From assembly GCA_041660885.1 (NCBI GenBank), contig JBAZVM010000002.1, positions 81,538 through 145,537 on the forward strand: a stretch of 64,000 nt of DNA. Direction: 5' to 3'. The stretch comes from Patescibacteria group bacterium (GTDB lineage: Bacteria; Patescibacteriota; Patescibacteriia; UBA9570; JAHJKD01). A program made the translations under genes and the position numbers. The notes beneath the pieces are model-generated. The model made no database searches. It was not told the DNA's origin and worked only from the letters and a program-made list of their open reading frames with translations. Positions within the stretch are counted from its first letter, which is position 1. Every line of letters begins with the position of its first letter. Positions 1-47,140 of the stretch are shown one piece after another.

Positions 1-2456
1 GCGACATCAGAAGTATCTGTAAGCAGTGTGGTATTGTTTTGAGATAGGGTGGCTTTGGCATCGGCTATGGGAAAGCCTCTGGTGTTGTTGAGGGTTAATT
101 TTAGTCCGGATGATTCTACAGGGTTAGAAACGGTATTAGAAGAGGCGGAAACATCTTCATCTGAAGTAAAAGAAGCTGAAGCGGAATCTATTTGAGAAGA
201 AGAACAAGGATTATTGATTCTAACGACATAAGAAATAGTAAGTGTTTTGTCTTGGCCTATGGAAGGAGTGGTGAATGTTATGTTGCTGCCATTGGTGGTA
301 ATGACTGTGTTTTCGTTGCTACTGGTTGGAGTATTGGCTTGCAGAGTAGTGTCGGCTGGAATGGTATCGGTAATGACGGTGTTGCTGGCGGAAAGATCAC
401 CAGTATTTTCCGCGGTGATAGTATATTGAATATATTCATTAGGTTCGATGGTTTCTCCATTATCGTCGGCTGCTATGGAAGCAGGGTTAATTTGCCAAGA
501 TAAAGCAAAAACTATCATAGTAATGGCGGAAAAAACAGCCGAGGCTTTGTTTCCTAATGAAAGATATTTAGATTTTTCTATATTTGGCAAAGAAATAAAG
601 AAGAATAAAGCAAAAGAAAGAAAGAGCAATATGAATGTAATAGAATAAATATTTTTCTTAATCGTGCGAAAATAGTAATTAGCAGTACTTTCGGCATTAG
701 CTTGTTTAATGAGAATGTTAATAAAAGAGAATGGTCCGGTACTAATAGTGACTACTTTGGAAAGGGATATTTCCGGAGGTAAAGCGGTGTTTACGGTAAA
801 GCTTTTGATGGTAGACCAATCGCTCTTGGCACTTGATGGATCTGATACGCGAACAGACCAATAATAAGTGGTTTCTTCTGAAAGGGCGTCTGTAACTTTT
901 AAAGAGGCTGTGCCGATATTGGAAGTATAGCTATATTGGTTGTTGGTAATAGGGTCGCTATTGGTACTTACTCTTACATGGTAGGTAAGTTCTGATGAAG
1001 TGTTATCGGAATCGGTTGGAGCGGTCCAGGAAAGGGTTGGTTTGGTTGTGCCTACTTCTTCGTTGTTAGGACTAAAGCCGGAGGTGACTTTGTTGGGGGT
1101 GTCGTTTACATTATTGACGGTAAGATTGATTTGATTGCTGTTCTTAGAAACACCATTACTGTCCGTGGCATTAAAAGTAATAGTATCCGTACCGTACCAA
1201 TTTTCTTCTGGGGTAAGAGTAGCTGTACTGCCATCAATAGTTACCGTTATGTTATCCGGAGTATCCGTATCTAACAGGGAATAGGTTAAAGCTAAACTTT
1301 CTCTTTGAGTAAAGTAAGTGCTAAGAGTAATAGTGGAGGTATTATCTTCATTAAAGGAAATATCTGATATGGTGGAAGTGGCTATATCATCATTGGTATC
1401 CGTGTTATCCGTCACATAACCGGCTGGAGCCGTAGCAGAACAAAGAGAAGTGGTATTTAAAGGATTGCCTTTACCGTCTCCGTCGTAGTCGTAGTAGTAG
1501 GTTTGGTTGGCGGAGACTGCGGCGTCGTTGTCGTTACAGTCGGTGCTATCCATGAGGCCATCCGTGCCAGGTACATTATCGCCATCAGCGTCGAAATAAA
1601 TATAACCCAAGTAAACGGCCCCTGCCCAATCTCCTCCGGCATCATTACCATACGAGCCAATAATTACATCATAATAGTTATCATTATTCACATCACCAAC
1701 AGCCGGTGCACCAGCATAATCTTCAATCTCTTCACCAATAAATTTATAAGTATTTGCCGCAGATACAGTTATATCCGCTAGGTCCGTATCTTGGCCAAAT
1801 ATCAAATAAGCGGCACCGGAATCAGAGCCGGCGCCATCATGCTCGGTAGCACTGATTAATACATCATCATAGCCGTCGTTATTAACATCGCCGGCCGCGG
1901 AATATCTGGCAAAACGATCGCCGGCCGCTTCACCGGTAAATTTAATCGCGGTCGCCGCTGATAAAGTTATGTCCGCCAAATTCACGGCTTGACCGTAAAT
2001 AAGATAAGCGGCTCCGCTGTTAAGGCCGTTACCGTCGTTGGAAAAAATTTCTAATACAATATCATCATAGCCATCGTTATTAACATCGCCGGCAGGAGAA
2101 GAATCCCTCGCGCCATCATTTGCCGCTTCACCGGTAAATTTAACCGTGGTGACCGCCGATAAAGTTATGTCCGCCAATTCCGCGGCTTGACCGTAAATAA
2201 GATAAACAGCGCCGGCATCGGCACCGCCTCCGTCATTTTTAGTCGCGCCGGTCATTAGATCATCATAGCCATCGCCATTAACATCACCGGCAGAAGAAAC
2301 AGAGCCCCCTGCATAATCGCCTGCCACTTCACCAACAAATTTTGATGAATTAGCCGCCGATAAAGTTATATCCGCCAAATCCGCGGCTTGACCGTAAATA
2401 AGATAAGCGGCTCCGGCTTGCGCGCCACCTCCGTCATTCCAAAACGCTCCAATCAT
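1..2456 (-). CDS. FG-GAP/VCBS-repeat surface protein, distal part (3' partial, runs off window start). It continues the frame of 2466..3041 after an in-frame TAG. The FG-GAP repeats are followed by a Cys-containing D/N-rich segment, Ig/FN3-like domains and a hydrophobic segment near 560-660, so two genes could be present.
   Basis: The minus-strand frame is continuous (checked by hand through 540-780 and 2400-2470). It encodes repeated ...AAYLIYGQAA.LADITLSAA..KFTGEAA.D.AG.SVS.AGDVNGDGYDDL... units like the downstream paralogs. The first in-frame ATG after the TAG is at 2454-2456, encoding M in ...DDLMIGAF.... Absent from the ORF track because the frame has no stop inside the window. Confidence 0.5.
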   Translation of the reverse strand, partial: MIGAFWNDGGGAQAGAAYLIYGQAADLADITLSAANSSKFVGEVAGDYAGGSVSSAGDVNGDGYDDLMTGATKNDGGGADAGAVYLIYGQAAELADITLSAVTTVKFTGEAANDGARDSSPAGDVNNDGYDDIVLEIFSNDGNGLNSGAAYLIYGQAVNLADITLSAATAIKFTGEAAGDRFARYSAAGDVNNDGYDDVLISATEHDGAGSDSGAAYLIFGQDTDLADITVSAANTYKFIGEEIEDYAGAPAVGDVNNDNYYDVIIGSYGNDAGGDWAGAVYLGYIYFDADGDNVPGTDGLMDSTDCNDNDAAVSANQTYYYDYDGDGKGNPLNTTSLCSATAPAGYVTDNTDTNDDIATSTISDISFNEDNTSTITLSTYFTQRESLALTYSLLDTDTPDNITVTIDGSTATLTPEENWYGTDTITFNATDSNGVSKNSNQINLTVNNVNDTPNKVTSGFSPNNEEVGTTKPTLSWTAPTDSDNTSSELTYHVRVSTNSDPITNNQYSYTSNIGTASLKVTDALSEETTYYWSVRVSDPSSAKSDWSTIKSFTVNTALPPEISLSKVVTISTGPFSFINILIKQANAESTANYYFRTIKKNIYSITFILLFLSFALFFFISLPNIEKSKYLSLGNKASAVFSAITMIVFALSWQINPASIAADDNGETIEPNEYIQYTITAENTGDLSASNTVITDTIPADTTLQANTPTSSNENTVITTNGSNITFTTPSIGQDKTLTISYVVRINNPCSSSQIDSASASFTSDEDVSASSNTVSNPVESSGLKLTLNNTRGFPIADAKATLSQNNTTLLTDTSDV

Positions 2457-2950
2457 TAAATCATCCTATCCGTCGCAATTAACATCTCCATCTAAAGAAA
2501 CAGAACCGCCCGCATAATCAGCTGCCGCTTCACCGGTAAATTTAACCGTGGTGGCCGCCGATAAAGTTATATCCGCCAAATCCGCGGCTTGACCGTAAAT
2601 AAGATAAGCGGCTCCGCTGTTCAGGCCGTTACCGTCGTTAAAATCTGCTCCTATTAAAATATCATCGTAGCCATCACCATTAATATCGCCGGAGGAAATT
2701 GATACACCAGCATCATCATCCGCGGCTTCTCCGGTAAATTGGATTGCCGTTGCTGCTGATAATGTTAGATCGGAAATTTCCGCGGCTTGGCCGTAAATAA
2801 GATAAACTGCGCCGGCGCCGGCACCGCCGTCATCGTTCTCATTGGCGCTAATTAAAATATCATCGTAACCGTCGCCATTAATATCGCCCGAGGAAAAAAC
2901 CGGATTACCGGTATTGTTGTCTGCTGTCTCACCCAATATTTTTGTTAATT
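1750..2950. repeat. Intragenic tandem DNA repeats of about 200 bp (about 5-6 copies), encoding FG-GAP units
   Basis: Near-identical segments ...gataaagttat(a/g)tccgccaaatccgcggcttgaccgtaaataagataagcggctccg... recur near 1960, 2160, 2350, 2560 and 2760. Confidence 0.6.
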
Positions 2951-3041
2951 CACTCAAATCAAATTGTTCCTGAGTAATGCCCAAAACAGGAATCACAAAA
3001 AATAATACTAGCAGAAATAGTATTATTTTTTTATTTGCCAT
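2466..3041 (-). CDS. FG-GAP repeat protein N-terminal segment (signal peptide plus 2 FG-GAP units), ending at an in-frame TAG that replaces the Tyr of a DGYDD motif
   Basis: ORF track 191 aa: MANKKIILFLLVLFFVIPVLG (signal peptide), then GDINGDGYDDILI repeats. Stop at 2466-2468 is TAG on the minus strand. Paralogs have TAT (Tyr) at the equivalent position, and the frame stays open downstream. Confidence 0.6.
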   Translation of the reverse strand: MANKKIILFLLVLFFVIPVLGITQEQFDLSELTKILGETADNNTGNPVFSSGDINGDGYDDILISANENDDGGAGAGAVYLIYGQAAEISDLTLSAATAIQFTGEAADDDAGVSISSGDINGDGYDDILIGADFNDGNGLNSGAAYLIYGQAADLADITLSAATTVKFTGEAAADYAGGSVSLDGDVNCDG

Positions 3042-3109
3042 ATTTTTTTTAAAAACAAAAAGACTAATTTATGATTATTATTATATAACTTTCCAACTAA
3101 TTATACAAA

Positions 3110-5338
3110 TTATTGAAGCGATAATTCGTAGGTGTTTTTTTTAGATAAATAGCGCAAGAGATATTTAACGAGAATTTTTCCTTTAGTATTTCTTAAGCGA
3201 ATAATATTGTTATGGTTGCTGGTTTTACTGGCATTTATTTTATCATTCTCAAAAGAAGCATATAGCTTCAAACCTAATTTTTCCTGATTAATTAATAATT
3301 TTATTACAGAAAGTTTTACTTTGCCTTTTTTATTCTTGGCTGTCACCACTGCCCATTTCTTATCTCTTAGAGTATACGTTTTTAAAGAATTAGATTTATA
3401 ATTTTTATCAGCTAATTTCTTTGAAGAAAGCACGGCAAGGGCGTTAATATCCACCAAAGCCAAGCTTCTTGCTTTAGGGTGCAAAGCTAAATAATAATTA
3501 TCTTGATACTGTTGCAGGGTGACGTCATCCGTACCAGTATAGTCAAAGACATGTATGATAGCGGTTTCGCTGTTTATATAAGTAATGGTAATATCGCCGT
3601 TATCCCCCGCGGTAATAGTAGAAATGTCTTTAATAGTATCATCACTATCATTGCTATTGGTAACATACCCGGCAGGAGCCGTGGCAGAACAAATAGAATC
3701 GGTAATTAAAGGGTTACCCAAGCCATCGCCATCTAAATCCTGATAATAAGTTTGATTAGCGGAAACTGTAGCGTCATTATCATTGCAATCCGTACCAGTT
3801 TCACTGCCGTCATTATCATAGTCATTATCGTTGGTGTCTGCACCATCAAATAAACCGTCGGTGCCAGCCAAGCCATCACCATCGTTATCAATATACAGAT
3901 AGCCAATATAAACCGCGCCATAACCTTGCGGCCCGGCTCCTTTAGCGCCAATATTCAAATTTAATTTATCCCCCGCACCACCGCCACCATCGGTATTTTT
4001 AGAAGCACCGATTATAATATCCGAGAATCCGTCGCCGTTTATATCCCCGGCGCCAAGGGCAGTGCCGCTATAATCACCCGCGTTTTCCCCCGTGAATTTG
4101 ATAGTATCTGATAATAAAGTATTGGAAAAATTCGTTGTTTGTCCGTAAATTAAATACGTTGCTCCTGATAATAATCCATTTGTATCATCCCCATTCGCAT
4201 TAATTAATATATCATCATAGCCATCGTTATTTACATCTGATGCCGATGCAACAAAATTACCCGCAAAATCTGATGCCAGTTCTCCGGTAAACTTTACGGC
4301 CGTAGATAAAGAAGCACTGGTTAAATTTTCCGCTTGGCCATAGATAAGGTAAGCGGCGCCTTTAAATTCATCATAACCCCTGCTGCCAACAAGAAAATCG
4401 CTATAACCATCGCCATCCACATCTCCGGCAGAGGATACGGAATAACCGGCATAGTCGTTCGCCACTTCACCAGTAAACTTTACAGCGGTCGATAAAGAAG
4501 CACTGGTTAAATTTTCCGCTTGGCCATAGATAAGGTAAGCGGAACCGGCCGCAACATCAGGATCATCTGATGCATAAGCTCCGACTAGCATATCATCATA
4601 GCCATCGCCATCCACATCTCCGGCAGAGGATACGGAATACCCGGCAGAGTCGCCATACAATTCACCGGTAAACTTTACAGCGGTCGATAAAGAAGCACTG
4701 GTTAAATTTTCCGCTTGGCCATAGATAAGGTAAGCGGAACCGGCTGAAATATCGGGATCATCTGTTCGGTATGCCCCAATAATCATATCATCGTAGCCAT
4801 CGTTATCCACGTCCCCGGCAGAGGATACGGAATACCCGGCATAATCATCCGACGCTTCACCGGAGAACTTTACAGCGGTCGATAAAGAAGCACTGGTTAA
4901 ATTTTCCGCTTGGCCATAGATAAGGTAAGCGGCGCCTTTAGTTGAGGATTCGGCAAAAGCTCCGATCAAAATATCGTCATAGCCATCTCCGTTCACATCT
5001 CCAGCCGAAGCTATAGATGTCCCGACAAAATTATTTATTGCTTCACCAGTAAATTCTACGGCCGTTGATAGCGGGCCGCCGCTTAACTGAGACTCTTGTC
5101 CATATATCAAATAAATGGATCCCGATTGAGACGCGGCTGAACTTCGATAAGTAGCGCTAATAATAACATCGTCATAGCCATCTCCGTTCACATCTCCAGC
5201 CGAAGCTACGGAATATCCTGCCTGGTCGCTTTCTGCTAAACCGGTATATTCTTGGAACAAAGAAAGATTATAAGTATCCGCGCTGGCAATAATCGGGAAA
5301 ATGCTCAGACTTAGAATCAATAAAATTACTTTTTTCAT
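3110..5338 (-). CDS. Secreted FG-GAP/VCBS-repeat protein (7-8 repeats) with a D/N-rich Cys-containing calcium-binding-like segment and a Lys-rich C-terminal domain
   Basis: 742 aa. Signal peptide MKKVILLILSLSIFPIIASA. Repeated AGDVNGDGYDD..IGA and AYLIYGQAENLTSASLSTAVKFTGE units. Tail ...KNKKGKVKLSVIKLLINQEKLG... Stop is TAA. Confidence 0.8.
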   Translation of the reverse strand: MKKVILLILSLSIFPIIASADTYNLSLFQEYTGLAESDQAGYSVASAGDVNGDGYDDVIISATYRSSAASQSGSIYLIYGQESQLSGGPLSTAVEFTGEAINNFVGTSIASAGDVNGDGYDDILIGAFAESSTKGAAYLIYGQAENLTSASLSTAVKFSGEASDDYAGYSVSSAGDVDNDGYDDMIIGAYRTDDPDISAGSAYLIYGQAENLTSASLSTAVKFTGELYGDSAGYSVSSAGDVDGDGYDDMLVGAYASDDPDVAAGSAYLIYGQAENLTSASLSTAVKFTGEVANDYAGYSVSSAGDVDGDGYSDFLVGSRGYDEFKGAAYLIYGQAENLTSASLSTAVKFTGELASDFAGNFVASASDVNNDGYDDILINANGDDTNGLLSGATYLIYGQTTNFSNTLLSDTIKFTGENAGDYSGTALGAGDINGDGFSDIIIGASKNTDGGGGAGDKLNLNIGAKGAGPQGYGAVYIGYLYIDNDGDGLAGTDGLFDGADTNDNDYDNDGSETGTDCNDNDATVSANQTYYQDLDGDGLGNPLITDSICSATAPAGYVTNSNDSDDTIKDISTITAGDNGDITITYINSETAIIHVFDYTGTDDVTLQQYQDNYYLALHPKARSLALVDINALAVLSSKKLADKNYKSNSLKTYTLRDKKWAVVTAKNKKGKVKLSVIKLLINQEKLGLKLYASFENDKINASKTSNHNNIIRLRNTKGKILVKYLLRYLSKKNTYELSLQ
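4280..4945. repeat. Four near-identical tandem DNA repeats of about 190 bp inside the FG-GAP gene
   Basis: The segment gtaaactttacagcggtcgataaagaagcactggttaaattttccgcttggccatagataaggtaagcgg recurs at about 4285, 4470, 4665 and 4860 with very few substitutions. Confidence 0.7.
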
Positions 5339-5344
5339 AAAATA

Positions 5345-7780
5345 TTATTTAACTAAATATAATTTATATTTGGCTTTCTTTTTTAAGTAAGATAACTGAT
5401 ATTCTTTTAAGTGTTTTCCGTTTTTATTATTAAGATAAATAGAGTTCTTCTTTTTGGTAGTCTTTTTAATTTTAATTTTAACGTTCTCTGTTAAAGCTTT
5501 GGCTTTTTTTCCAAGTTTAGTTGTACTGATTTTTAGTTTGACCACATACAGCCGAACTTTAATTTTTTTCTTGGAAATGATGGTGACAAATTTAGAGTGG
5601 TTAATAGTAAAAATTTTTATTGCGTTATTCTTGAATTTAACTTTCTTGGATAATAATTTTCTGGAAAGCACTTCCCCATTATATACATTCACCAAAGCTA
5701 ATTTCTTGCCCCATGGGTGCGTTACTAAATAGTAACCGGTGTTTTGGTATTGTTTTACTTTGGTTTTCTTTTTAGATACTATGGAATATATATTATATGA
5801 ATAAACGGAATAATCTGCGTAAGTTACTAAAATATTTCCATGAGAATAGCCAACAACGGAAATAATAGAGTTTAGATAGGCAGCTTGATCTGTGGGATCA
5901 ATAGCGCCATAAACCGGGTGTATACCGTTTTCGGAAAGCGTGTTTACCTCATCTATAGTGCCGTCGCTATCGTTATCTATGCCATCTCCCCCTATTTCAA
6001 TATTGTCTTCGTCTCCACTATTGCCACTATCATCAGTATCGTCGTCGTTAGCCACATACCCCGCGGGTGGCGTAGCTGAACAAACAGTAGTGCAAGTGTT
6101 CGGATTGCCCAAACCATCTCCATCGGCATCTTGATAATAAGTCTGGTTCTCATGAACCGCGGAATCAGTGTCGCTGCAATCAGTGCTATTAGTGGAATAA
6201 CCGGCAGGCACGGTAGAAGAGCACACTGCCGTAATGGTTGTTGACCCATACCCGTCGCTATCGCTATCAACATAATAATTCGTGGTCGCGGAAATATTAA
6301 GATCGCTATCATTGCAATCCGTGCCATCTATTATGCCATCAGTGCCGGGCACGCCGTCGCCATCGCCATCGGACATGAGATATCCTAAATAGGCGGCGCC
6401 GGAATTAAAACCGCCTTCTTGATTGGTTGGATTTCCTATAACTACGTCCGCTAAACTATCATTATTAATATCACCGGCTAAAGACAAGCTATAGCCATAA
6501 TCATTAAAATAGATAACAGCGGTATCGCTAATGGTACCGCTACTTAGAGAAGAGCTTCCATATACCAAATAAACTTCTGTGGCTGCATCACCGATTAATA
6601 TATCATCATAGCCGTCGTTATTAACATCGCCGGCCGAAGCCACGGATACACCAAGATGAGAAACATCCCCTCCATTATAGACTACATCAGCAGAAGAAAA
6701 AGTACCTCCGGCTAAATTATCTCCGTAAAAAATAAAAACTTTTCCATTATCGGTCTCATTCGGACAACCGACGATAATATCGTCATAATTATCATTATTA
6801 ACATCGCCAGTCGTAACAGAATAAGTTACGCCCTCACCATGGATGCTGTTGCGATAAATAGTTTGCGAGGATAAATGCGTGTCCGTTAAACTGCCGGTTC
6901 CATAAACAATATAAAGGCCAGCATTTTCGCTGGAAAGATTGTAATCAATAAACGCGTAATCCGGGTAACTGTCATTATTAAAATTACCCACGGCCATATT
7001 TTTTTCCAGTCCGATATCATAACCAAGCTCTACTTCGAGCCCGTCGTGATCACCGAAAAATTTTACATCAGCCGCTGTTTCCAGGCTGGCGGCATCCGCG
7101 CTGAATCTGGTTTCTTGACCATATATCATAAACACCGCGCCTTCTCCGTATCCGTCTATGCTGGCGCTATAATTGGGAACGCCTATTAAAAAATCATCAT
7201 AGCCATCGGCATTGGCATCTCCGCTGGAAGCCAGAGAGGATCCGATATATAAACCAGCAGAGTCCCCGTACCATGAGGCATCAGAATCTGAATCTAAATC
7301 ATAGTTTCCGCTATACTGCTCTGCTTGGCCATATACTAAATAAACCATACCATTGCCCTCTCCTCCATATGGCGGAGCACTAATTAAGATATCGTCATAA
7401 CCATCATTATCCACATCGCCTGCTGATGCAACGGCAAAGCCCGTGGAATTATTACTGGCAGTACCATGAAAATGAGCATCAGCAACGGACAAATCTATAC
7501 TTGTTAAAGAATTTTCGCTTCCATAAATTAAATATACAGTTCCGACACCTATATCCAAGCCATCATCCGCGGTATAGGCACCTATCAATATATCATTATA
7601 ACCATCGCCATTAAAATCACCGTCCGATGAAACAGCGTTTCCTGCTTGATCACCATACGCTTCTTCGTTTCCTTCTTCACCTGTGAATTGAACCAATTCA
7701 TCCACGCTGACTTCAGTCGCTGTTGCGGAAACGATTAGTGGCAGAAATAATAATATCAAGCCTAATAATACTTTTTTCAT
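5345..7780 (-). CDS. Secreted FG-GAP/VCBS-repeat protein paralog with D/N/Cys-rich region and Lys-rich C-terminal domain
   Basis: 811 aa. Signal peptide MKKVLLGLILLFLPLIVSATA. FG-GAP motifs SDGDFNGDGYNDILIGA and AGDVDNDGYDDILISA. C-terminal tail ...KKKIKVRLYVVKLKISTTKLGKKAK..., homologous to the tail of 3110..5338. Confidence 0.8.
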   Translation of the reverse strand: MKKVLLGLILLFLPLIVSATATEVSVDELVQFTGEEGNEEAYGDQAGNAVSSDGDFNGDGYNDILIGAYTADDGLDIGVGTVYLIYGSENSLTSIDLSVADAHFHGTASNNSTGFAVASAGDVDNDGYDDILISAPPYGGEGNGMVYLVYGQAEQYSGNYDLDSDSDASWYGDSAGLYIGSSLASSGDANADGYDDFLIGVPNYSASIDGYGEGAVFMIYGQETRFSADAASLETAADVKFFGDHDGLEVELGYDIGLEKNMAVGNFNNDSYPDYAFIDYNLSSENAGLYIVYGTGSLTDTHLSSQTIYRNSIHGEGVTYSVTTGDVNNDNYDDIIVGCPNETDNGKVFIFYGDNLAGGTFSSADVVYNGGDVSHLGVSVASAGDVNNDGYDDILIGDAATEVYLVYGSSSLSSGTISDTAVIYFNDYGYSLSLAGDINNDSLADVVIGNPTNQEGGFNSGAAYLGYLMSDGDGDGVPGTDGIIDGTDCNDSDLNISATTNYYVDSDSDGYGSTTITAVCSSTVPAGYSTNSTDCSDTDSAVHENQTYYQDADGDGLGNPNTCTTVCSATPPAGYVANDDDTDDSGNSGDEDNIEIGGDGIDNDSDGTIDEVNTLSENGIHPVYGAIDPTDQAAYLNSIISVVGYSHGNILVTYADYSVYSYNIYSIVSKKKTKVKQYQNTGYYLVTHPWGKKLALVNVYNGEVLSRKLLSKKVKFKNNAIKIFTINHSKFVTIISKKKIKVRLYVVKLKISTTKLGKKAKALTENVKIKIKKTTKKKNSIYLNNKNGKHLKEYQLSYLKKKAKYKLYLVK

Positions 7781-18574: not shown

Positions 18575-20833
18575 TTAATCGTGCACCTTTACTCTTATCC
18601 TGTCAGATTTAATAGCGGTATTACCATAAGTGCTTCTAGCAGCAACAGTCGATGGTTTCCACCGTACTTGATAATACATGTTTTTAGCTGGTTTTACTGT
18701 GAAAACAGCCTTTCCTTTATGGTTGGTCTTTACGAAAGTTACCAACTTCCAAGTGCCTGATTTCTTGGCTTTTTTATATAATTTCACTTTTTTATGAGCT
18801 AGAACATCTTTGGTTGTGGAATCTTTTAATGTGGCGGTTAAAGTGGCGGAATTTCCTAAAGCGATATTATATTTATTTGCTTTAAAATTCAATTGAGCGT
18901 TGGAATGCATTACATAAACTCCGGTATTGGTTCCAGTAACTAATCCTCGAGTCTTGGCTGTAGCTAGAGCGCTTACACCCGTGGCCGTAGTCCCCGTGGA
19001 AAATACCATGGCATTGAAAGTCTCATCTTTCAAACCGGTATAATACAGGCTGAAATTTTCCCCGGCGTCGGTAGATTTATAAATACTGCCAGTGCCTGAA
19101 GGCCGAGCTGTAGACACATAAACCACATCGCTGCTGCCGGATTCCGTGGCTAACGCGTGATACCAACCCATTTCTTCCAAACCATTGGCGGTTAAATCTG
19201 TCCAAGTAGCGCCGGCGTCTGTGGATTTAAATACTCCGCCTTGATTGGTTTCTCCGGAGGCCGCGTAAACAGCGTCGCCAATTACCATAATATCATTTAC
19301 CATCTGCCCTTCTATATCCCCGGTTAATTGGGTCCATGTAGCACCATCATATTTATAAATGCCTCTTTTTGTGGCCGTGGTATCCCATTCATCGCCTACG
19401 CCGGCATAAATATCGCCATCGGCATCAACCGTTAAAACATTAACTTCTATATCGGTTAAACCCGCAGCAGTCCAAGTAACGCCATGATCAGTGCTTTGCT
19501 GCACTCCACCAGGATACGCGGCATACAAAATACCATCGCTGGTTTCTAGAAAAGCAGAAGCCGGTTCGCTTAATACCGCATCGGATAAAACCCAGGTGGT
19601 ACCGCCGTCTGTTGAATAATATATATTATTCAATTGGCAGGAAACCACATTGTTAATATCGTCCGGATTCATCCAGACCGCGGTGGCATAATCCACATTG
19701 CTGTTGGCAGTTATCGGGAAAGACCAAGTAGGATTGGCATCGGTAAAATTGATGGTCTTGGCCAAACCGCCATAAGCCGCCAGCCAAACCGTATTTTGAT
19801 CGGCGGATTGCGCTAAATCATACACGGTAATACCTAATAGTCCGTCATTCGCTTCGGCCCAAGTGGTGCCGGAATCACTGGTTCTAGCTACGCCAGTCAT
19901 TGATTCTATATACATTATTGCCGTATTGTTGGGGTCAATGCCCAAACTTTCGTCTTTTACCCTAGTCGCGCTGGTAGTTGTGCTGGTTAAAGCGGTCCAA
20001 TCCGTTCCATTATTATCCGTATAATAAGGGCCTGCATAAATTCTATCGCCGCTAAAAACGACGCTGCCGTGATGATCAGCGGTTAAGGTGCTCCAAGTAC
20101 CGGTAACGCCGGTTGTGGTATAAGTGGTGCTAGAACTTCCTTTTAACACTATAAAATTCGCATCTGTTGGTTTAACATCAACTGCGCCGGAAGAACCAGT
20201 TAAAGTTATACCGGTTGTAGCCCAAGTAGCGCCGTTATCCGCACTTTTAAATAAAGTTAAAGTATTTTCACCAGTTTGGCCTAACACATACACATCATTC
20301 GTGGTCGCGGCGGCGGAAATATGACCTATGGAAGTAATCGTGCTATCGACAATCACATTGGTGAAATTATCACCTCCATCACTGCTAATATTAATGGTTC
20401 CGTCTCTCATGCCGACAAACACTCTGCTTTGGCCGTAGTAAAGGGCGTTGCCAACATTTTGCGGGCTTAATTGCTCCCATGTGGCTCCGCCGTCTTCACT
20501 GCGGTATAAATTTATACCACCGATGAAATAAACAGCAGTTGATGATACATCAATATTAGCAATAGTGCCCACATCTTCTTCTGCGGGCAAACCGTTCCAG
20601 GTAGTTGCGCCATCAGTAGAATAAAAGAAACCGTTTGGAGAATTAAAGCCAACATAAACAGCGCTATCCGGGCCGACTTCTAAATCGGCTACATAGCCGC
20701 CATATAATTCCAGGCTAGTGCGCACAGAGCCGTCTTGGTCTTCTTCAAACACCGTATTAGCGGAAGAAACAACGGGCCCCAATAACAACAAAACGCTTAA
20801 AAAAGCGCTTAAATAAAGGATTTTTCCCCTCAT
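18575..20833 (-). CDS. Secreted BNR/Asp-box repeat (sortilin/Ycf48-like beta-propeller) protein with Ig-like Lys-rich C-terminal domain
   Basis: 752 aa. Signal peptide. Many S.DGG.TW Asp-box repeats (STDGATTWN, SEDGGATWE, SADNGATWA, STDGGTTWV, STDHGVTWT, STDAGATWT). Tail KKVKLYKKAKKSGTWKLVTFVKTNHKGKAVFTVKP resembles the FG-GAP paralog tails. Confidence 0.75.
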   Translation of the reverse strand: MRGKILYLSAFLSVLLLLGPVVSSANTVFEEDQDGSVRTSLELYGGYVADLEVGPDSAVYVGFNSPNGFFYSTDGATTWNGLPAEEDVGTIANIDVSSTAVYFIGGINLYRSEDGGATWEQLSPQNVGNALYYGQSRVFVGMRDGTINISSDGGDNFTNVIVDSTITSIGHISAAATTNDVYVLGQTGENTLTLFKSADNGATWATTGITLTGSSGAVDVKPTDANFIVLKGSSSTTYTTTGVTGTWSTLTADHHGSVVFSGDRIYAGPYYTDNNGTDWTALTSTTTSATRVKDESLGIDPNNTAIMYIESMTGVARTSDSGTTWAEANDGLLGITVYDLAQSADQNTVWLAAYGGLAKTINFTDANPTWSFPITANSNVDYATAVWMNPDDINNVVSCQLNNIYYSTDGGTTWVLSDAVLSEPASAFLETSDGILYAAYPGGVQQSTDHGVTWTAAGLTDIEVNVLTVDADGDIYAGVGDEWDTTATKRGIYKYDGATWTQLTGDIEGQMVNDIMVIGDAVYAASGETNQGGVFKSTDAGATWTDLTANGLEEMGWYHALATESGSSDVVYVSTARPSGTGSIYKSTDAGENFSLYYTGLKDETFNAMVFSTGTTATGVSALATAKTRGLVTGTNTGVYVMHSNAQLNFKANKYNIALGNSATLTATLKDSTTKDVLAHKKVKLYKKAKKSGTWKLVTFVKTNHKGKAVFTVKPAKNMYYQVRWKPSTVAARSTYGNTAIKSDRIRVKVHD

Positions 20834-30681: not shown

Positions 30682-31605
30682 TTACTGCAATACCGGACCC
30701 ACGGACGGGCTTAAATCGTCAACGCTGTTATTGGTAAGCCTTTTTAATTTTTTGTCTTTTAATCTTAAGGAGTATATTTCAAAATCGCTATCCGTGCTTT
30801 TTTTGAATGAAAAAATAATTTTTTTGCCATTAGGCGTGTAGGCCGGTGTGCGCGCTTCCCCTTTTAACTTTTTAAGCCTTTTTACATCGTTCCCATTTTT
30901 CTTCATGGTAAACAAGCGATAATTGCTTTTAACTTTTTTCACAAAAACGATGCGCTTGCTATTGGGAGAAAAACGCGGTTCGTAACTTTTATTATTGGTC
31001 GTTAATGAAACGGGATTGGTGCTATTGGCATCCATAATATAAATATTATGATTGCCTAAGCTATCCTCACCTTCAAAAACTATTTTGCTGTTATCCGGAG
31101 AATAAGAGGCGTAACCACTAATTGGCAGATTAAAATAAGCCGGCGTCATATCGCTTACATTCTTGCCGTTTTTATTGGCCGTATAAATATAAGAAAGCAA
31201 GCTGCCGGTGGTATAATCTTGCGCCGAGTAAATAATTTTATTCCCGTTGGGAGACCAAGAAACTTGATGATTAATCGTAACGGAATTTTCATCCACCACC
31301 ATGGAATCTGTGCCGTCACTATTGATCATACAAACCATGAATGTACCTGAAGCGCAGGCATAAGCTATTTTCTCTCCATTCGGAGAAACGGATATTCCTT
31401 CCGAGCTATCCAACTGATTACCACCAACGGTTACTATGCTTTTTCCCGTCCCATTAATTTTCATCTGGTATATAGGATAAGAAGTATAATACTCTCCCGC
31501 GTCTGTTGTGGCGTAATAAATGCGATTTTCCGCGAATAATACCGCGGGACTGGCCAAAACAAAAAACAGCAACACTGCCAATGTCGTTGTAAATACTTTT
31601 TTCAT
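30682..31605 (-). CDS. Secreted TolB-like PD40 beta-propeller protein
   Basis: 307 aa. Signal peptide. Repeated SPNGEKIAY, SPNGNKIIY, SPDNSKIVF, SPNSKRIVF, TPNGKKIIF blades. Confidence 0.7.
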   Translation of the reverse strand: MKKVFTTTLAVLLFFVLASPAVLFAENRIYYATTDAGEYYTSYPIYQMKINGTGKSIVTVGGNQLDSSEGISVSPNGEKIAYACASGTFMVCMINSDGTDSMVVDENSVTINHQVSWSPNGNKIIYSAQDYTTGSLLSYIYTANKNGKNVSDMTPAYFNLPISGYASYSPDNSKIVFEGEDSLGNHNIYIMDANSTNPVSLTTNNKSYEPRFSPNSKRIVFVKKVKSNYRLFTMKKNGNDVKRLKKLKGEARTPAYTPNGKKIIFSFKKSTDSDFEIYSLRLKDKKLKRLTNNSVDDLSPSVGPVLQ

Positions 31606-41336: not shown

Positions 41337-41825
41337 TTAAAACGGGGTCCAGCTAAAGACTTCCTTGCCTTTGCCGTTAATGATGACTATAACGTTCTTG
41401 TTTTTTATTTGTAAGCGATAATCTCGGCGAATATATCTAAACATCGTTCTTTTTTGTAAATGAAATTTATTATCATCAACGTTAAAGCTATAAATTTTAA
41501 GATAAATAGAGGAACCTCGTTTGGAAGCCACTACTATCTCTTCCGTGTTTTTGGTGGCGTTTAAATTACCCGTGGCCATTTTTCTCCAATGCAGTTTGGG
41601 AGATAATCTTTTTGCTGTTAATAAATTGCCGTTCGTATCATAAGCGCGGATGGAAGAGCCGGCGCGCTTTTTTACGGCAAAGACATAAAGTTCATTTTTA
41701 ATTTCAGCTAATCTGGGAATTACGCCGCCCACTGGGAAAGCTTGGAAAGTGGCTAATAAAATATTATCTTCCGTATAAAGGTTAACTATGCCTCTGCCCC
41801 TGTTGGTACCCGTGCTGTAATCCAC
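41337..41825 (-). CDS. Hypothetical beta-rich protein. It may be the frameshifted C-terminal domain of the upstream giant adhesin rather than an independent gene.
   Basis: The track starts at a GTG with no SD. The same frame is open upstream to 41915, encoding ...TVTEEDDDDDDSDSQEVDYSTG... (an acidic linker), and overlaps the adhesin stop in the -1 frame. Confidence 0.45.
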   Translation of the reverse strand: MDYSTGTNRGRGIVNLYTEDNILLATFQAFPVGGVIPRLAEIKNELYVFAVKKRAGSSIRAYDTNGNLLTAKRLSPKLHWRKMATGNLNATKNTEEIVVASKRGSSIYLKIYSFNVDDNKFHLQKRTMFRYIRRDYRLQIKNKNVIVIINGKGKEVFSWTPF

Positions 41826-41899
41826 TTCTTGGCTGTCGCTATCATCGTCGTCATCATCCTCTTCAGTAACGGCGACTACTATGGTATTGCTTTCGGCTG

Positions 41900-44800
41900 T
41901 TAGGTTTCGGAATCTGTGGCAATAAAACTAATTTCTTCCGAACCGTTATAAGAAGCGTTGCTGGTCATGGATACTTGGCCATCGGTAACCGTAATAATAA
42001 CGTTCATATTGCCGGCCGTGGAATAAGTTAAAGATGTATCTTGCGCATCTGTGAAGTAATCATCAAGATCAAAGACATTGCTGGCTGTATCACCGGCCAC
42101 GAAGGAGACATTAGGCAGAGAGCCGGCAAAGGTTGGCGCGGTATTAGTTTCAGTAACCGTAACATTAACAACTTGCGTAACATTATTATCTCCGTCAAAG
42201 GCATTAAAAGTTGTTGTGTAAACACCAGATTGAGAGTAAGTAGGAGTCCAATTAAAAGTGCCGGTATTATTTCCATTGTCCGTAAACAAAGTAGAAATAT
42301 CCACGCCCGCGGCGCTATAGTCGTTTGATGCATCTAAAGCCGTGAGCGTTAAAGTGCTTGTATCTTGATCATTGGCGCCAACAGAGAAAGACAGGTTGGA
42401 ACCGGCCCCGATAGTTTTCTCCGTAATGGCTACAAAAGAAGGAGCGTCGTTATCCGCTGTTACGTTTACAGTCATGGTATCCGGGGCGGAATCGTCTTTA
42501 GTGTCATTCACTATTAAACGATATTCGCAAGAATAATTTGATTCTTTATCGGCAAAGTCCACATCCGGAGTGGCAGAAGTATTATTGGATAAACTGCAAG
42601 CGTCCGAAGCGTCCAGAGTTTCCACCCAAGCGTAAGTTAACGGATCGCTATCTAAATCAGATGAACCCGTACCATCCAATGTCGTTGACGCATCTGATTC
42701 GTTTTTATTTTGATCCGCTCCGGCATCGGCAACAGGCAAATTATTAGGATCGTTATCCGTAATAGTGGCCGTATGTTCTATGGTGGCTCCTTGGGTAGCA
42801 TTAGTGGGAGAACCCATGGTTGCTATTACGGTTTCATTGCTTTCATCTAAAGTATCATCGGTAACAGTAATGGTAATATTGGCCGTTGTATTCCCGGCAG
42901 TGATACTAATAGGTGACGCGGTAATGGAGTAATCAGTTCCGGAACCCGTGGCCGTGCCGGCTATAGTATAAGGAATAGAAACATTTTTTCCCGAAGCTGT
43001 TGAAAGTTCGGCCGTAATGGTCATGGTGCCGACATTTTCCGCGCCTGATTGCAAAGCGGAAGTAAATGTCACGGTTGGCGCGCTATCATTATCCGTAATA
43101 GTACCGGTATGTTCTATAGTGGCTCCTTTAATGCCGTTGGTGGGATCACCCATGGTGACTATCACGGTTTCATCATCTTCGTCTAATGTATCGTTGGTTA
43201 TGGTAACGGTAATGTCGGCTGTGGTATTGCCCGCGGTAATGGTAATGGGGGATGCGGTAATGGAATAATCGGTTGCTCCACCTGTGGCCGTGCCCGTAAC
43301 AATGTAAGGAACTGTAATATCTAAAGCCGGAGCATAAGATGCTTCCGCGGTAATGGTGTAGCTAGCTTCGTTTTCCGCTTTGGTGGCTGTACTGGTTGTC
43401 CAGTTTACTGTTGGTCCGTCAAAATCCCAGTTATCATTATTTCCGGCGTTGTATGAAGTTACACCGGCAACAACTTCCGTTCCAAAACTGGCATCCGAAT
43501 CCATTACGTCCACGTAAGTGACGGCTTGCGTGCCAGAGAAATTAAGATTCCAATGATTAGTGTCTGATGTACTGCGCAACACTACTTCATGGTCAGCTAT
43601 GCCGGTTAAAGTAAGGAGGCCGGTAATGTTTTGCGTGACGGCTTGCGTGAATTTAATGTTTTTATCTTGGGTAACGCATCTGAATCCGGAAAAAGTATTA
43701 GTTCCTGATATTATTGATGTTTTGGTATTATCGTCAAATATTACTTTTCCGGCAGAAGCATTAAAGGTTCCGGTATTGGCAAAGTTCTCACCGACGGTTA
43801 AATCGAAATTACCTGCTGTCACGTTAAATGTTCCAGAAGCAATATTCAGGTCGTTGTTAATATCTAGCGCGGCGCCTAACTGATAAAGATCAGTGGCTCC
43901 ATCCGCGCTGGTTATTGTTAAATTATTATATGTGTTAGATAAAGTAGTTAGAGTGTAGGTGTCTTCGGCGTCGTCATCATCACCGGTAAACTCTACCGTG
44001 CCGCTATTGGTATCCATGGTTATGGTGGTAGCTTCGTTTCCTCTTAGTCTTAATGTGCCGTCGTTGGTGAAAGTTGTACTTACTGTTAAGCCGTTATTGT
44101 TTAAGGAAAGAGTGCCGGATGAAATAGTAACGTTATTAATGGTTTCCGTGTTCGCTAATGTAAAGACGCTGGAGCCGGCAATAGTTAAATTGGAATAGGT
44201 GTAATCTTTAATGGTATAAGGGCTGGAGCCATCATAGGTAACAGTAGAGCCAGCATCTAATTGCGGGTAGCTGACTGAATCAGGGGTAATGGTTTCTCCG
44301 CCTTGGAGTTGAAGATTACCGCCTGTTTCCACTACTATTTTTTCCGTGGCACTGCCTTGAACGGTAAGCGCGTTATTATTTAAATCAAAAGTTCCTTCTT
44401 GAATAGTAAGATCTTGGTTGGAAGCGTCCATAACCAAAGCCGAAGCGAGATTAACGGCTCCGCCGGATTTATTGACCGTGATATCGGCGTTGTATAATCC
44501 CGTGGCACCGGTAAGGTCAAACGACTGCGTGTTGCCCCCTTTAAAATTTAACGGTGAAGTGCCGCCATCATACCCAGAACTTACAGTAACATCGCCCTGC
44601 GCTTCTAAGGTGCCAACAGAAATATAGCCTTCTGTTAATGATAGCAAGCCTGTTGTAACTATCGTATCACCTGACGATATGGTATAGGTCCATCCGTATG
44701 TAGAATTAAATTGCAAATCATGAAATGTTTCTGTCGTAGCGACATTTAAAGTAGCGGAACCAATAGTAAATATTACCGACCCGTTTCCTTCTACAAATTC

Positions 44801-47140
44801 ACCGCCTGATTTTGTAAAATTAGCCTGTCTTATAGTTAAAGTGGAAGATGGGGTAAAAATTCCAGAGTCTTGAGTATAACCGCTCGATACAAGAGTTAAA
44901 TTATAACCATCATAATTAATGGGTACATTATTGGCATCTCCAAAACCTGCCGCAATATTCAAGCCATAAAATGTTGTATCAGCGTTTAAATTTACATCAT
45001 CATTGGCATCATCAGGATCGTCAAATTTTATAATGGGAGCAATTCCACCCGCTACGATATCGCACGCTTGTGCTTCGGTATCATCGGCAAAATTTAAAGT
45101 GCCATCGCCGCCGTCAAAACCGGCTGATATGGTAATAGTTCCTTGTGCGTCAATCGTGCCAGTGCTTATTTGACCTTCTGTTAAAGTTAAATCATGAGAA
45201 ACAATCATTTTATCGCCCGTCATAATGGTCATGGCCCAACCAGGAACCTGATCAATCTCCACATCATAAAATGTTTCTTCCGTGGTAGCGCCCGTCATAT
45301 CAAAGCGATTGGTGCCGTTGGTAAAGACCACTGTATTTGTTCCCTCTTCAAAAGTTCCGCCGGATTTCACAAAATATGCTCCGTTGCCATCTATGGTTAA
45401 TATAGTAGGTGCGGTAAAAATACCAGAAGCTTGAGTGTAATCACCTACTCCTATAGTCAAATTGTGCGCATTATAAGTAATGGGTACATTTAAATTCGGC
45501 GCGTCAGGGTCAAAATCTGATGTGATGTTTAAACCATAAAAAGTAGCGTCGCCGCTTAAAGAGACAACATCATTAGCATCGTCCGGATCATCAAATTTAA
45601 TAATCGGGGTAATTTTACCGGAAGGAACAGTATATGTTTGTACTTCCGTATCGTCCGCAAAGTTTATTACTCCATCACCGCCATCAAAGTCAGCGGATTG
45701 GGTTATAGTACCCTGTACATCAATAGTGCCCGTGCTTAATGTACCGTCTGTTAATGTTAATGCGTTTGTTACAACTATTGTATCACCGGAAGAAACAGTA
45801 CACGCCCAACCGTTTATCGCGTCAATTTCCATATCATAAAATGTTTCCGTTGTAGCCACATCAATAGTATTTGAACCATCCCTGAAAATTACTTTGTTAG
45901 TGCCCTCGGTGAAAAATCCGCCGCTTTTAGTAAAATAGGCCGTATTACCAATAATAATTAAAGTACTCGGTGCTGTAAAAATTCCCGAGGCTTGAATATA
46001 ATCCCCAACACCAATACTTAGAATATGGCCGGCATAATCAAAATTTACATTGTTGGCATCGCCAAAACCGGCCGCAATTTCCAAACCATACATTGTGGCA
46101 TCAGCGCCTAAAATTATTTGATCATTAGCATCGTCAGGATCATCTAATTTAACTTTCATCCCATAGGCGTTGTTAATAGTATATGTTTGATTAAGAGCAT
46201 CGTTGCCAAAGCTAATGGTTGCATTACCGCCATCGAAATTTGCTCCTTGCGATATAGTTCCTTGCAAATCAATGGTTCCAGTTTGCAGGTAGCCTTCTGT
46301 TAAAGTTAACGTGTCGGTAACTGTAATGGTATCACCAGAAGAAATAATCAGCTGCCAACCAGCATTCATGCTTACTTCCAAATTATGCACCGTTTCCGTA
46401 CTATTAACATTAAAGGTTGCTCCTCCTGTAGAAAATATTATTGTACTCGTTCCTTCGGTAAATGTTCCGCCGGAACCAACAGTAAAATCCGCGTATGTTA
46501 AAGTAATGGTTTCATCAGTCGCGTCAAAAGTGCCTGAATCTATAGCTAGATCAGATGTGCCAATGCTAAGAGTTGTTTGAGCGGAAACAGTACCATCATA
46601 TCCGGTGTTTATATCTATACCACCAATGGCCGAGCCAAAAGCAGCATTAATTACCGCGTTATTATCTGAAGTTCCGTCAAAAACAGCTATATCCGTAGAG
46701 GTGGGGCAAGAATTTCCCACCCAGTTATCACAATTGCTCCAATTCGTATCGACACCACCTCCACCATCCCAAGTATGACTATCGGCTAGTGCTTCTTTAG
46801 TAAACCAAGGGGTCCTGGAAAAAGCTACAGCTGAAAGATCAACTACATATATCAAAGAAATTATGCCAAGACCCAAGGCTATGGTATAAGCGCGAAAACC
46901 TCTTTTTAATTTAAGATGCTCGTGATAAGAATGTTTATATGTGCCATTCTTACGCTGTTTGGCTTCAAAGTTAAAGCTATGGTAAGGACTTAAGAATAAT
47001 AAGTAAAAAGCATGAACTACGGAGTACACGCAAATTAAAGGTAATAACAACAGTTTATAAAAGAACTTAGAAACAGGAGTTCTTTTCTTTTTATTGCTTT
47101 TCTTTATGATATCAGAAATTTTTTTCACAAAGAAATACAT
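41900..47140 (-). CDS. Giant surface adhesin (1746 aa): N-terminal TM anchor, parallel beta-helix-like repeats, two Calx-beta domains, cadherin/Ig-like C-terminal domains
   Basis: N-terminal hydrophobic helices. Long T/G/S/D/N-rich beta-helix repeats. Calx-beta signatures ITVTITNDTLDEDDETVIVTMGDPTNG and ITITVTDDTLDESNETVIATMGSPTNA. PLTYAW and DAPSF cadherin-like motifs. Confidence 0.85.
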   Translation of the reverse strand: MYFFVKKISDIIKKSNKKKRTPVSKFFYKLLLLPLICVYSVVHAFYLLFLSPYHSFNFEAKQRKNGTYKHSYHEHLKLKRGFRAYTIALGLGIISLIYVVDLSAVAFSRTPWFTKEALADSHTWDGGGGVDTNWSNCDNWVGNSCPTSTDIAVFDGTSDNNAVINAAFGSAIGGIDINTGYDGTVSAQTTLSIGTSDLAIDSGTFDATDETITLTYADFTVGSGGTFTEGTSTIIFSTGGATFNVNSTETVHNLEVSMNAGWQLIISSGDTITVTDTLTLTEGYLQTGTIDLQGTISQGANFDGGNATISFGNDALNQTYTINNAYGMKVKLDDPDDANDQIILGADATMYGLEIAAGFGDANNVNFDYAGHILSIGVGDYIQASGIFTAPSTLIIIGNTAYFTKSGGFFTEGTNKVIFRDGSNTIDVATTETFYDMEIDAINGWACTVSSGDTIVVTNALTLTDGTLSTGTIDVQGTITQSADFDGGDGVINFADDTEVQTYTVPSGKITPIIKFDDPDDANDVVSLSGDATFYGLNITSDFDPDAPNLNVPITYNAHNLTIGVGDYTQASGIFTAPTILTIDGNGAYFVKSGGTFEEGTNTVVFTNGTNRFDMTGATTEETFYDVEIDQVPGWAMTIMTGDKMIVSHDLTLTEGQISTGTIDAQGTITISAGFDGGDGTLNFADDTEAQACDIVAGGIAPIIKFDDPDDANDDVNLNADTTFYGLNIAAGFGDANNVPINYDGYNLTLVSSGYTQDSGIFTPSSTLTIRQANFTKSGGEFVEGNGSVIFTIGSATLNVATTETFHDLQFNSTYGWTYTISSGDTIVTTGLLSLTEGYISVGTLEAQGDVTVSSGYDGGTSPLNFKGGNTQSFDLTGATGLYNADITVNKSGGAVNLASALVMDASNQDLTIQEGTFDLNNNALTVQGSATEKIVVETGGNLQLQGGETITPDSVSYPQLDAGSTVTYDGSSPYTIKDYTYSNLTIAGSSVFTLANTETINNVTISSGTLSLNNNGLTVSTTFTNDGTLRLRGNEATTITMDTNSGTVEFTGDDDDAEDTYTLTTLSNTYNNLTITSADGATDLYQLGAALDINNDLNIASGTFNVTAGNFDLTVGENFANTGTFNASAGKVIFDDNTKTSIISGTNTFSGFRCVTQDKNIKFTQAVTQNITGLLTLTGIADHEVVLRSTSDTNHWNLNFSGTQAVTYVDVMDSDASFGTEVVAGVTSYNAGNNDNWDFDGPTVNWTTSTATKAENEASYTITAEASYAPALDITVPYIVTGTATGGATDYSITASPITITAGNTTADITVTITNDTLDEDDETVIVTMGDPTNGIKGATIEHTGTITDNDSAPTVTFTSALQSGAENVGTMTITAELSTASGKNVSIPYTIAGTATGSGTDYSITASPISITAGNTTANITITVTDDTLDESNETVIATMGSPTNATQGATIEHTATITDNDPNNLPVADAGADQNKNESDASTTLDGTGSSDLDSDPLTYAWVETLDASDACSLSNNTSATPDVDFADKESNYSCEYRLIVNDTKDDSAPDTMTVNVTADNDAPSFVAITEKTIGAGSNLSFSVGANDQDTSTLTLTALDASNDYSAAGVDISTLFTDNGNNTGTFNWTPTYSQSGVYTTTFNAFDGDNNVTQVVNVTVTETNTAPTFAGSLPNVSFVAGDTASNVFDLDDYFTDAQDTSLTYSTAGNMNVIITVTDGQVSMTSNASYNGSEEISFIATDSET

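Follow-up and report, generated by a model that had tools for sequence, protein, structure and literature searches.

Non-covalent wall-binding modules of monoderm bacteria include the GW modules of Listeria InlB and Ami, the basic C-terminal domain of Lactobacillus SlpA, the SLAP, SLH and CWB2 modules, and the SH3b domain of lysostaphin. Two other kinds of C-terminal element are known from surface and secreted proteins. One is the C-terminal domain (CTD; Por_Secre_tail) of the type IX secretion system (T9SS) of the diderm Bacteroidota; this CTD is a beta-sandwich, about 70-100 residues long, and PorU cleaves it. The other is the sortase signal, which combines an LPXTG motif with a hydrophobic helix at the C-terminus of surface proteins. 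With regard to the Patescibacteria, which are abundant, mostly uncultured and dependent on contact with other cells, the display of surface proteins is poorly known. Here we describe a basic C-terminal domain, referred to below as the tail, that ends the products of two adjacent genes (A and B) in a 64-kb stretch of a Patescibacteria metagenome-assembled genome (MAG; contig JBAZVM010000002.1, 153,818 bp). This whole stretch is called the window. The tail appears to be a previously undescribed domain family of about 190 residues, and it is a portable C-terminal cassette carried by many unrelated secreted proteins of Patescibacteria.

A sequence-only reading of the window had described three consecutive minus-strand genes, each with a signal peptide, FG-GAP repeats and a segment rich in Asp, Asn and Cys, and had noted conserved lysine-rich tails at the end of two of the products. 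The open reading frames (ORFs), the Pfam matches and the sequence itself agree with this description of the array, the features of which are as follows, with E values for the tail profile hidden Markov model (HMM).

5345..7780, minus strand: gene A, an ORF of 811 amino acids encoding a signal peptide, a 7-blade FG-GAP propeller, an Asp/Cys-rich linker and a basic C-terminal tail
5948..6385, minus strand: Asp/Asn/Cys-rich linker of A, with YYxDxDxDGxG...C...PxGY motifs
5348..5947, minus strand: tail domain of A, residues 612-811; tail HMM E 1.5e-69
3110..5338, minus strand: gene B, an ORF of 742 amino acids with the same architecture as A; NCBI MFA6027531.1 (WC752_01255)
3113..3637, minus strand: tail domain of B, about residues 568-742; tail HMM E 1.2e-56
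2..3041, minus strand, running off the window start: gene C, more than 1013 codons encoding a signal peptide, seven FG-GAP blades, a Cys-rich linker, Big_9, an Ig/Rha78A_N-like domain, two hydrophobic segments and DUF11

The tails of A and B are homologous. The two proteins are paralogs over their full length (36% identity, E 2e-110), and the alignment continues through the tails, over about the last 175 residues; the tails have 66 invariant columns in common, many of them not lysine. The sequence of A is the same as that of NCBI MFA6027532.1, a protein of a Patescibacteria group bacterium MAG. The tail of B is devoid of the N-terminal VNT..ENG.HP.Y extension that is present in that of A. Word-indexed homology searches were weak, as the A tail alone retrieved nothing and a 40-sequence profile only two proteins, and an exhaustive profile search was therefore needed. 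Such a search with a two-tail profile against 1.84 billion cluster representatives, in which A itself was the top match, returned 207 proteins at E<=1e-3, of which 150 reached E<=1e-10 and 30 reached E<=1e-30. The match ends at most 25 residues from the C-terminus in nearly all of the hits. The family was defined by a 40-sequence alignment, and members were taken to be signal-peptide proteins with a full-length match at the extreme C-terminus, as is the case for both A and B. Across 125 full-length tails, the most conserved positions are G37 (98%), T163 (97%) and G91 (90%), followed by F54, N87 and G80 (83-85%), and 12 columns are basic in at least 60% of the sequences. Position 173, which is Asn in A, is basic in 88% of the family.

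No described family accounts for the domain. The A and B tails match no Pfam family at E<=10, Ig-like, CarboxypepD_reg and wall-binding models included. When 40 members were scanned singly against Pfam and NCBIfam at E<=1, only scattered single hits were obtained, with no T9SS CTD or other sorting-domain model among them; the Pfam scan of these members likewise returned no SLH, CW_binding, LysM, SH3b/GW or WxL domain, no Big or CarboxypepD_reg domain and no consistent Ig family. A profile search of the PDB sequences gave spurious short hits only, and literature searches retrieved no account of the domain.

The charge of the tail is the strongest clue to its role. The tail of A has a net charge of +35 and an isoelectric point (pI) of 10.2, as against -99 and 4.05 for the rest of the protein. 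The net charge of the tail core is at least +10 in 112 of the 125 members, with a median of +20, and the passengers average -77, with a pI of 4.06. None of the usual anchoring signals accompanies this basic domain, in agreement with the earlier statement that LPXTG and other known anchors are absent: an LPXTG motif is absent from A, B, the BNR-repeat protein discussed below and all 125 tails, and none of these tails ends in a hydrophobic helix, as their last 60 residues contain at most 12 hydrophobic residues per 17-residue window. A co-occurring sortase or exosortase was also sought. No sortase or exosortase was found in the 40 window ORFs scanned with Pfam or, by precomputed Pfam hits, in the called genes of six related loci, which have no conserved neighbour in common. 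Degenerate-pattern scans of the sequence collections had yielded two genome loci and one metagenome locus; given this small number, six loci were inspected by hand instead of computing neighbour-enrichment statistics.

With regard to the fold, an AlphaFold2 model of the tail based on the 40-sequence alignment was confident (predicted local distance difference test score, pLDDT, 96.3; predicted template modelling score, pTM, 0.91) and contains about 16 beta strands in four groups. It supersedes a poor prediction from a two-sequence alignment (pLDDT 58). Foldseek searches against the PDB and BFVD returned partial matches only, to 7-8-bladed propellers (PROPPIN Hsv2, BamB, the BPB propeller of DDB1 and WD40 proteins), with template modelling (TM) scores, normalised to the query, of 0.27-0.56 and identities of 8-14%. 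About 200 columns of the tail align with four successive blades of these propellers (TM up to 0.56, root-mean-square deviation 5.0), and no close solved structure was found in the PDB (TM <=0.56). As the model is confident and the partial matches are to propellers, the domain looks like four propeller-type blades, and we predict with high confidence an all-beta fold of four beta-meander units resembling such blades. The predicted likeness to BamB, the PROPPINs Hsv2/Atg18, DDB1 BPB and WD40 proteins lies in their four-stranded meander blades, and a few members also gave weak sequence hits to propeller Pfam families. Beta-propellers differ, however, in having 7-8 blades instead of four; the tail belongs to none of their families, and a self-comparison with hhalign detected no internal sequence repeats in it.

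The proteins that carry the tail are diverse. A signal-peptide-like N-terminus is present in 124 of 132 complete members. A crude motif count assigns FG-GAP motifs to 80 of the 133 members in which the passenger exceeds 150 residues. In a Pfam scan of the other 53, together with six long members, the passengers matched Bact_surface_Ig-like (8 members), Peptidase_S8, that is, subtilases (7), FG-GAP (6, within this scanned subset), LVIVD and Big_5 (4 each), fn3, H_lectin and SdiA-regulated (2 each), and, in single members, PA14, Peptidase_M23, a beta-helix, a DUF7948, SBBP and filamin combination, and others. Of 129 members, 75 have a MopE-like Cys/Asp motif (YYxDxDxDG or CxxxxPxGY) ahead of the tail, and the Pfam family Cu-binding_MopE was matched by five of the 53 non-FG-GAP relatives scanned, with E values down to 5.8e-24. 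The MAG from which the window derives encodes at least seven carriers (A, B, the giant adhesin described below, P0003, P0004, P0011 and P0028), and neighbouring tail genes also occur in another genome (locus L004). All relatives with a source name except one are assigned to Patescibacteria or Candidatus Kerfeldbacteria. One relative, P0112 (198 amino acids), is a stand-alone tail with its own signal-peptide-like N-terminus and an unusual acidic core (net charge -10).

The passengers of A and B, like the corresponding part of C, are propellers of a known kind. The N-termini of all three products are signal-peptide-like, and the Pfam family FG-GAP (PF01839, cut-off 22.1 bits) was matched by A with 108.8 bits (E 9.7e-32, six stretches), by B with 114.9 bits (E 1e-34) and by the two halves of C with 55.4 and 63.7 bits (E 5e-15 and 1e-17). 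Seven GDxNxDGYDD blades were counted by eye in each protein, which indicates a complete integrin-alpha-type propeller. The number of blades and the DxDxDG calcium-loop motifs correspond to the bacterial integrin-alpha-type FG-GAP propellers (PF01839; PMC3192720); this likeness concerns the passenger and not the tail. An Asp/Asn/Cys-rich segment follows the propeller in all three proteins. Cu-binding_MopE (PF11617), a putative metal-binding motif, matched the linker of A alone, with an E value of 0.097 that is below the cut-off, and gave nothing for B or C.

Within the window, a divergent third copy of the tail was found directly after a giant adhesin.

41900..47140: giant adhesin of 1746 amino acids with Calx-beta, PKD and Big_9 domains
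41340..41900, minus strand: divergent third tail copy, in another frame, directly after the stop of the adhesin and with no signal peptide of its own
41900..41910, minus strand: apparent 1-nucleotide frameshift (ccgAAAccTAA), after an AAA run, that splits the adhesin from the tail

The stop-to-stop ORF at 41340..41927 on the minus strand matched the tail HMM with an E value of 1e-4 when the model was built from two sequences and of 5e-7 when it was built from 40 (model positions 3-180), and hhalign aligned it over 164 columns with a probability of 84% (E 7e-6). Across the junction, the reading is ...ISFIATDSE(T*) / (N)LTAESNTIVVAVTEEDDD..., and once a single base is restored, weak matches to Big_9 (residues 1-87) and Cadherin_5 (residues 30-88) cross the junction at residue 82. 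Given this third copy and the matches that span the frameshift, the adhesin was, or still is, a carrier of the tail. Within the window, the tail is thus common to FG-GAP propellers and to an unrelated giant adhesin. The frameshift may be real or may be an assembly error. An independent gene at 41337..41825 was also considered and was ruled out on two grounds: it would lack a signal peptide, and there appears to be an Ig-like domain that runs across the frame change.

The tail is not universal among the exoproteins of this organism, since two acidic envelope proteins encoded in the window do not have it.

52882..53988, minus strand: membrane-anchored, transglutaminase-like acidic envelope protein (pI 4.1) that does not carry the tail
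58246..60528, minus strand: acidic FG-GAP protein with a weak Reprolysin_5 match that does not carry the tail

The sequence-only reading had proposed a C-terminal module common to unrelated exoproteins and had cited, as its example, a BNR-repeat protein of the same window. The general proposal holds, on different and much stronger evidence, as the 207 representatives carry varied passengers. The example does not: the BNR protein has a basic end that is not part of the tail family. The diversifying surface proteome and episymbiotic lifestyle that the same reading suggested would be consistent with an origin in a Patescibacteria MAG.

18578..18916, minus strand: C-terminal segment of the BNR/Sortilin-Vps10 protein, basic, net charge +20 in the last 120 residues of the protein
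30682..31605, minus strand: PD40-repeat protein with a signal peptide and a basic end, net charge +16 in the last 120 residues

BLASTP of the A or B tail against the C-terminus of the BNR protein (18575..20833, minus strand) found nothing, the 40-sequence tail HMM did not report this ORF at E<=10 even with all filters off, and hhalign gave a probability of 0.3% for the BNR tail against the family. The resemblance to A and B is one of composition alone, that is, a basic end of net charge +20 on an acidic protein of net charge -49. For the BNR tail, the three best Pfam matches are Ig-like families that all stay below threshold, namely PITM1-3 (22.2 bits, cut-off 27.7), Big_1 (18.1, cut-off 34.9) and Big_3_5 (17.8, cut-off 35.5). 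Judged from these sequence matches, the BNR tail is probably Ig-like, if weakly so, which is the kind of known domain that the earlier reading had itself named as a reason to abandon an anchoring role, and which would fit this protein and not A or B. The PD40-repeat protein shows the same pattern as the BNR protein in a weaker form. Both proteins have a signal peptide and neither is homologous to the tail family; a basic C-terminus may be common to the exoproteins of this organism in general.

When compared with the described systems, the tail resembles, first, the wall-binding modules of monoderms. Both are folded, C-terminal and often very basic, are exported by Sec, have varied passengers (adhesins, proteases and M23 hydrolases) and no processing enzyme, and occur in several copies per genome. 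They differ in that no Pfam model of such modules matched the 40 tail members, and in that the predicted fold of the tail consists of four propeller-like blades and is not SH3-like, helical or toprim-like. The tail would thus be functionally analogous to GW, SLAP, SLH, CWB2 or SH3b modules, and unrelated to them in sequence and fold. The T9SS CTD is likewise strictly C-terminal, beta-rich and common to otherwise unrelated secreted proteases and adhesins. The tail differs from it in its length of about 190 residues and in having no Pfam or NCBIfam match to it, and no T9SS genes were seen. It shares with the LPXTG signal its position at the C-terminus of surface proteins and has neither the motif nor the helix of that signal.

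We propose, at about even chances, that the A/B tail is a self-sufficient surface-binding or retention module that acts non-covalently and largely through electrostatic attraction. A protein that a monoderm cell exports by Sec can do without a second translocation step, but it has to be kept on the cell by some means. The signal peptide would carry the protein over the single membrane via Sec, the folded basic tail would bind non-covalently to an anionic component of a cell envelope (examples are a glycopolymer of the wall, an S-layer and the head groups of lipids), and the bound tail would hold the acidic functional part on the surface. From the charge, the position and the passengers of the domain, we infer that it would bind some envelope component; the choice of ligand and of the producer's own or the host's surface is likewise conditional. 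Three points weigh against this proposal. First, two of the 125 tails have a net charge at or below zero, one of them in a stand-alone protein made up of a signal peptide and a tail. Second, one relative, a tail-bearing protein of 450 amino acids (L001, CAZNEH010000007.1), comes from a MAG labelled 'uncultured Gammaproteobacteria', so that the restriction of the family to one taxon has the support of few named sequences. The GC content is 39%, and the adjacent ORFs, judged by eye and only by their first and last residues, resemble DnaX, RsmH and a penicillin-binding protein. A mistake in binning or taxonomy may lie behind the label; alternatively, the family may reach beyond Patescibacteria. 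Third, the check for sortases is confined to the 64 kb of the window and to six short loci from elsewhere.

A serious rival to retention on the producer, given the M23, subtilase and lectin passengers, is that the tail targets the surface of a host (prey) cell, so that adhesins, proteases and a peptidoglycan hydrolase are brought to the wall of the host. There is a precedent in lysostaphin, the SH3b domain of which directs the enzyme to the wall of another cell. The Peptidase_M23, subtilase and lectin passengers could act on a host envelope, and the basic charge would bind any anionic wall. It also counts in favour of host targeting that the window derives from a MAG of the Patescibacteria, whose cultivated members are without exception episymbionts according to PMC11623550. 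On the other hand, once the signal peptide is cleaved, nothing else in A or B would retain the protein on the producer, and a free release of adhesin-like propellers would be odd. Moreover, the tail is kept across many lineages with presumably differing hosts. We regard host targeting as unlikely, and retention on a surface through the basic tail as the preferred explanation.

Two further explanations are less likely than host targeting. The tail could be an assembly or docking domain, in which an incomplete four-blade propeller pairs with a second copy or with a surface scaffold (an S-layer or a pilus) and the charge is incidental. The Foldseek fit to four consecutive blades is compatible with an open arc that needs a partner, and there are several copies per genome as well as tandem genes. 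However, no conserved partner gene was found nearby, and the near-universal strong basic charge would be left unexplained; this explanation is improbable. Still more doubtful is a secretion or sorting signal that is recognised and removed by a dedicated machine, as T9SS CTDs or sortase and exosortase signals are. The tail is indeed promiscuous and strictly C-terminal, with diverse passengers and N-terminal Sec signals, a distribution that is the same as that of T9SS CTDs. Nevertheless, the 125 tails have no LPXTG motif and no hydrophobic helix, Pfam and NCBIfam gave no hit to a T9SS or other sorting-domain model, neither the window ORFs scanned nor the six loci contain a sortase, an exosortase or a conserved neighbour, and about 190 residues is large for a signal. 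In addition, an outer membrane is not known from Patescibacteria, so that export would not require a second translocation step.

The weakest explanation, namely that the A and B tails are alike only through lysine-rich low complexity or are Ig-like domains of a common type that play no particular part, is very improbable for these two proteins, because strongly conserved non-lysine positions exist among the 207 members, the model is confident, non-Ig and matched by propellers, and no Big or CarboxypepD_reg hit was obtained in 40 members; it holds for the BNR protein, in which no likeness to the A/B tail could be detected and the three best, weak Pfam hits of which are Ig-like.

The third gene of the array differs from A and B in its C-terminal part, and its reading frame is interrupted.

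2466..2468, minus strand: in-frame TAG in gene C, replacing the Tyr codon (TAT/TAC to TAG) of a GDGYDD calcium-loop motif
1917..2816: DNA tandem repeat in gene C, 4.5 copies of a 201-bp unit, 73% match; the units are FG-GAP blades
4280..4932, minus strand: DNA tandem repeat in gene B, 3.4 copies of a 195-bp unit, 84% match; the units are FG-GAP blades

The frame remains open for more than 820 codons beyond the TAG. The stop could be a nonsense mutation in a pseudogene, a strain variant or polymorphism, or a sequencing error. Reassignment of TAG was considered as its cause and was ruled out, because TAG terminates 6 of 45 ORFs and the other genes are intact. Together with the frameshift of the adhesin, this makes two large surface-protein genes that are disrupted within 64 kb. 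After the linker, the visible part of gene C is unlike A and B: its Pfam matches are to Big_9, an Ig/Rha78A_N-like domain and DUF11, and it has two hydrophobic segments ahead of DUF11. This visible part contains no tail; as the gene passes the window start, the real C-terminus lies outside the window. An exact 60-mer scan of metagenome contigs for the rest of gene C and for the source contig returned nothing, and exact look-ups of A, B and P0011 gave no record. At 498..653 on the minus strand, the hydrophobic segments IYSITFILLFLSFALFFFISL and AVFSAITMIVFALSW stand in mid-frame, with the DUF11 domain after them, and the second is signal-peptide-like (…INPASIA/ADD). Given these segments, the product of gene C may be membrane-anchored, or two genes may have been fused with no stop between them. 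As B and C each have their own repeat unit, the tandem repeats suggest that the blades of these genes arose by recent intragenic duplication or homogenisation.

For the Patescibacteria as a group, the tail may represent a lineage-specific display system, in which a self-sufficient, basic domain resembling a four-blade propeller takes the place of sortase-type anchoring and docks, in a non-covalent manner, an entire repertoire of adhesins, proteases and lectins on the cell's own envelope or that of its host; we put this forward tentatively, as somewhat less than an even prospect. At least 207 protein clusters contain a region of about 190 residues that is unannotated and for which a confident structural model is now possible. 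The tail would also be a concrete object for binding experiments, since the organism need not be in culture for tail fusions to be prepared. Since it would mark secreted adhesins, proteases and lectins, it would give a sequence handle for predicting the surface proteome. If the proposed display system is correct, genome searches for the tail would list the interaction surface proteome of uncultured episymbionts.

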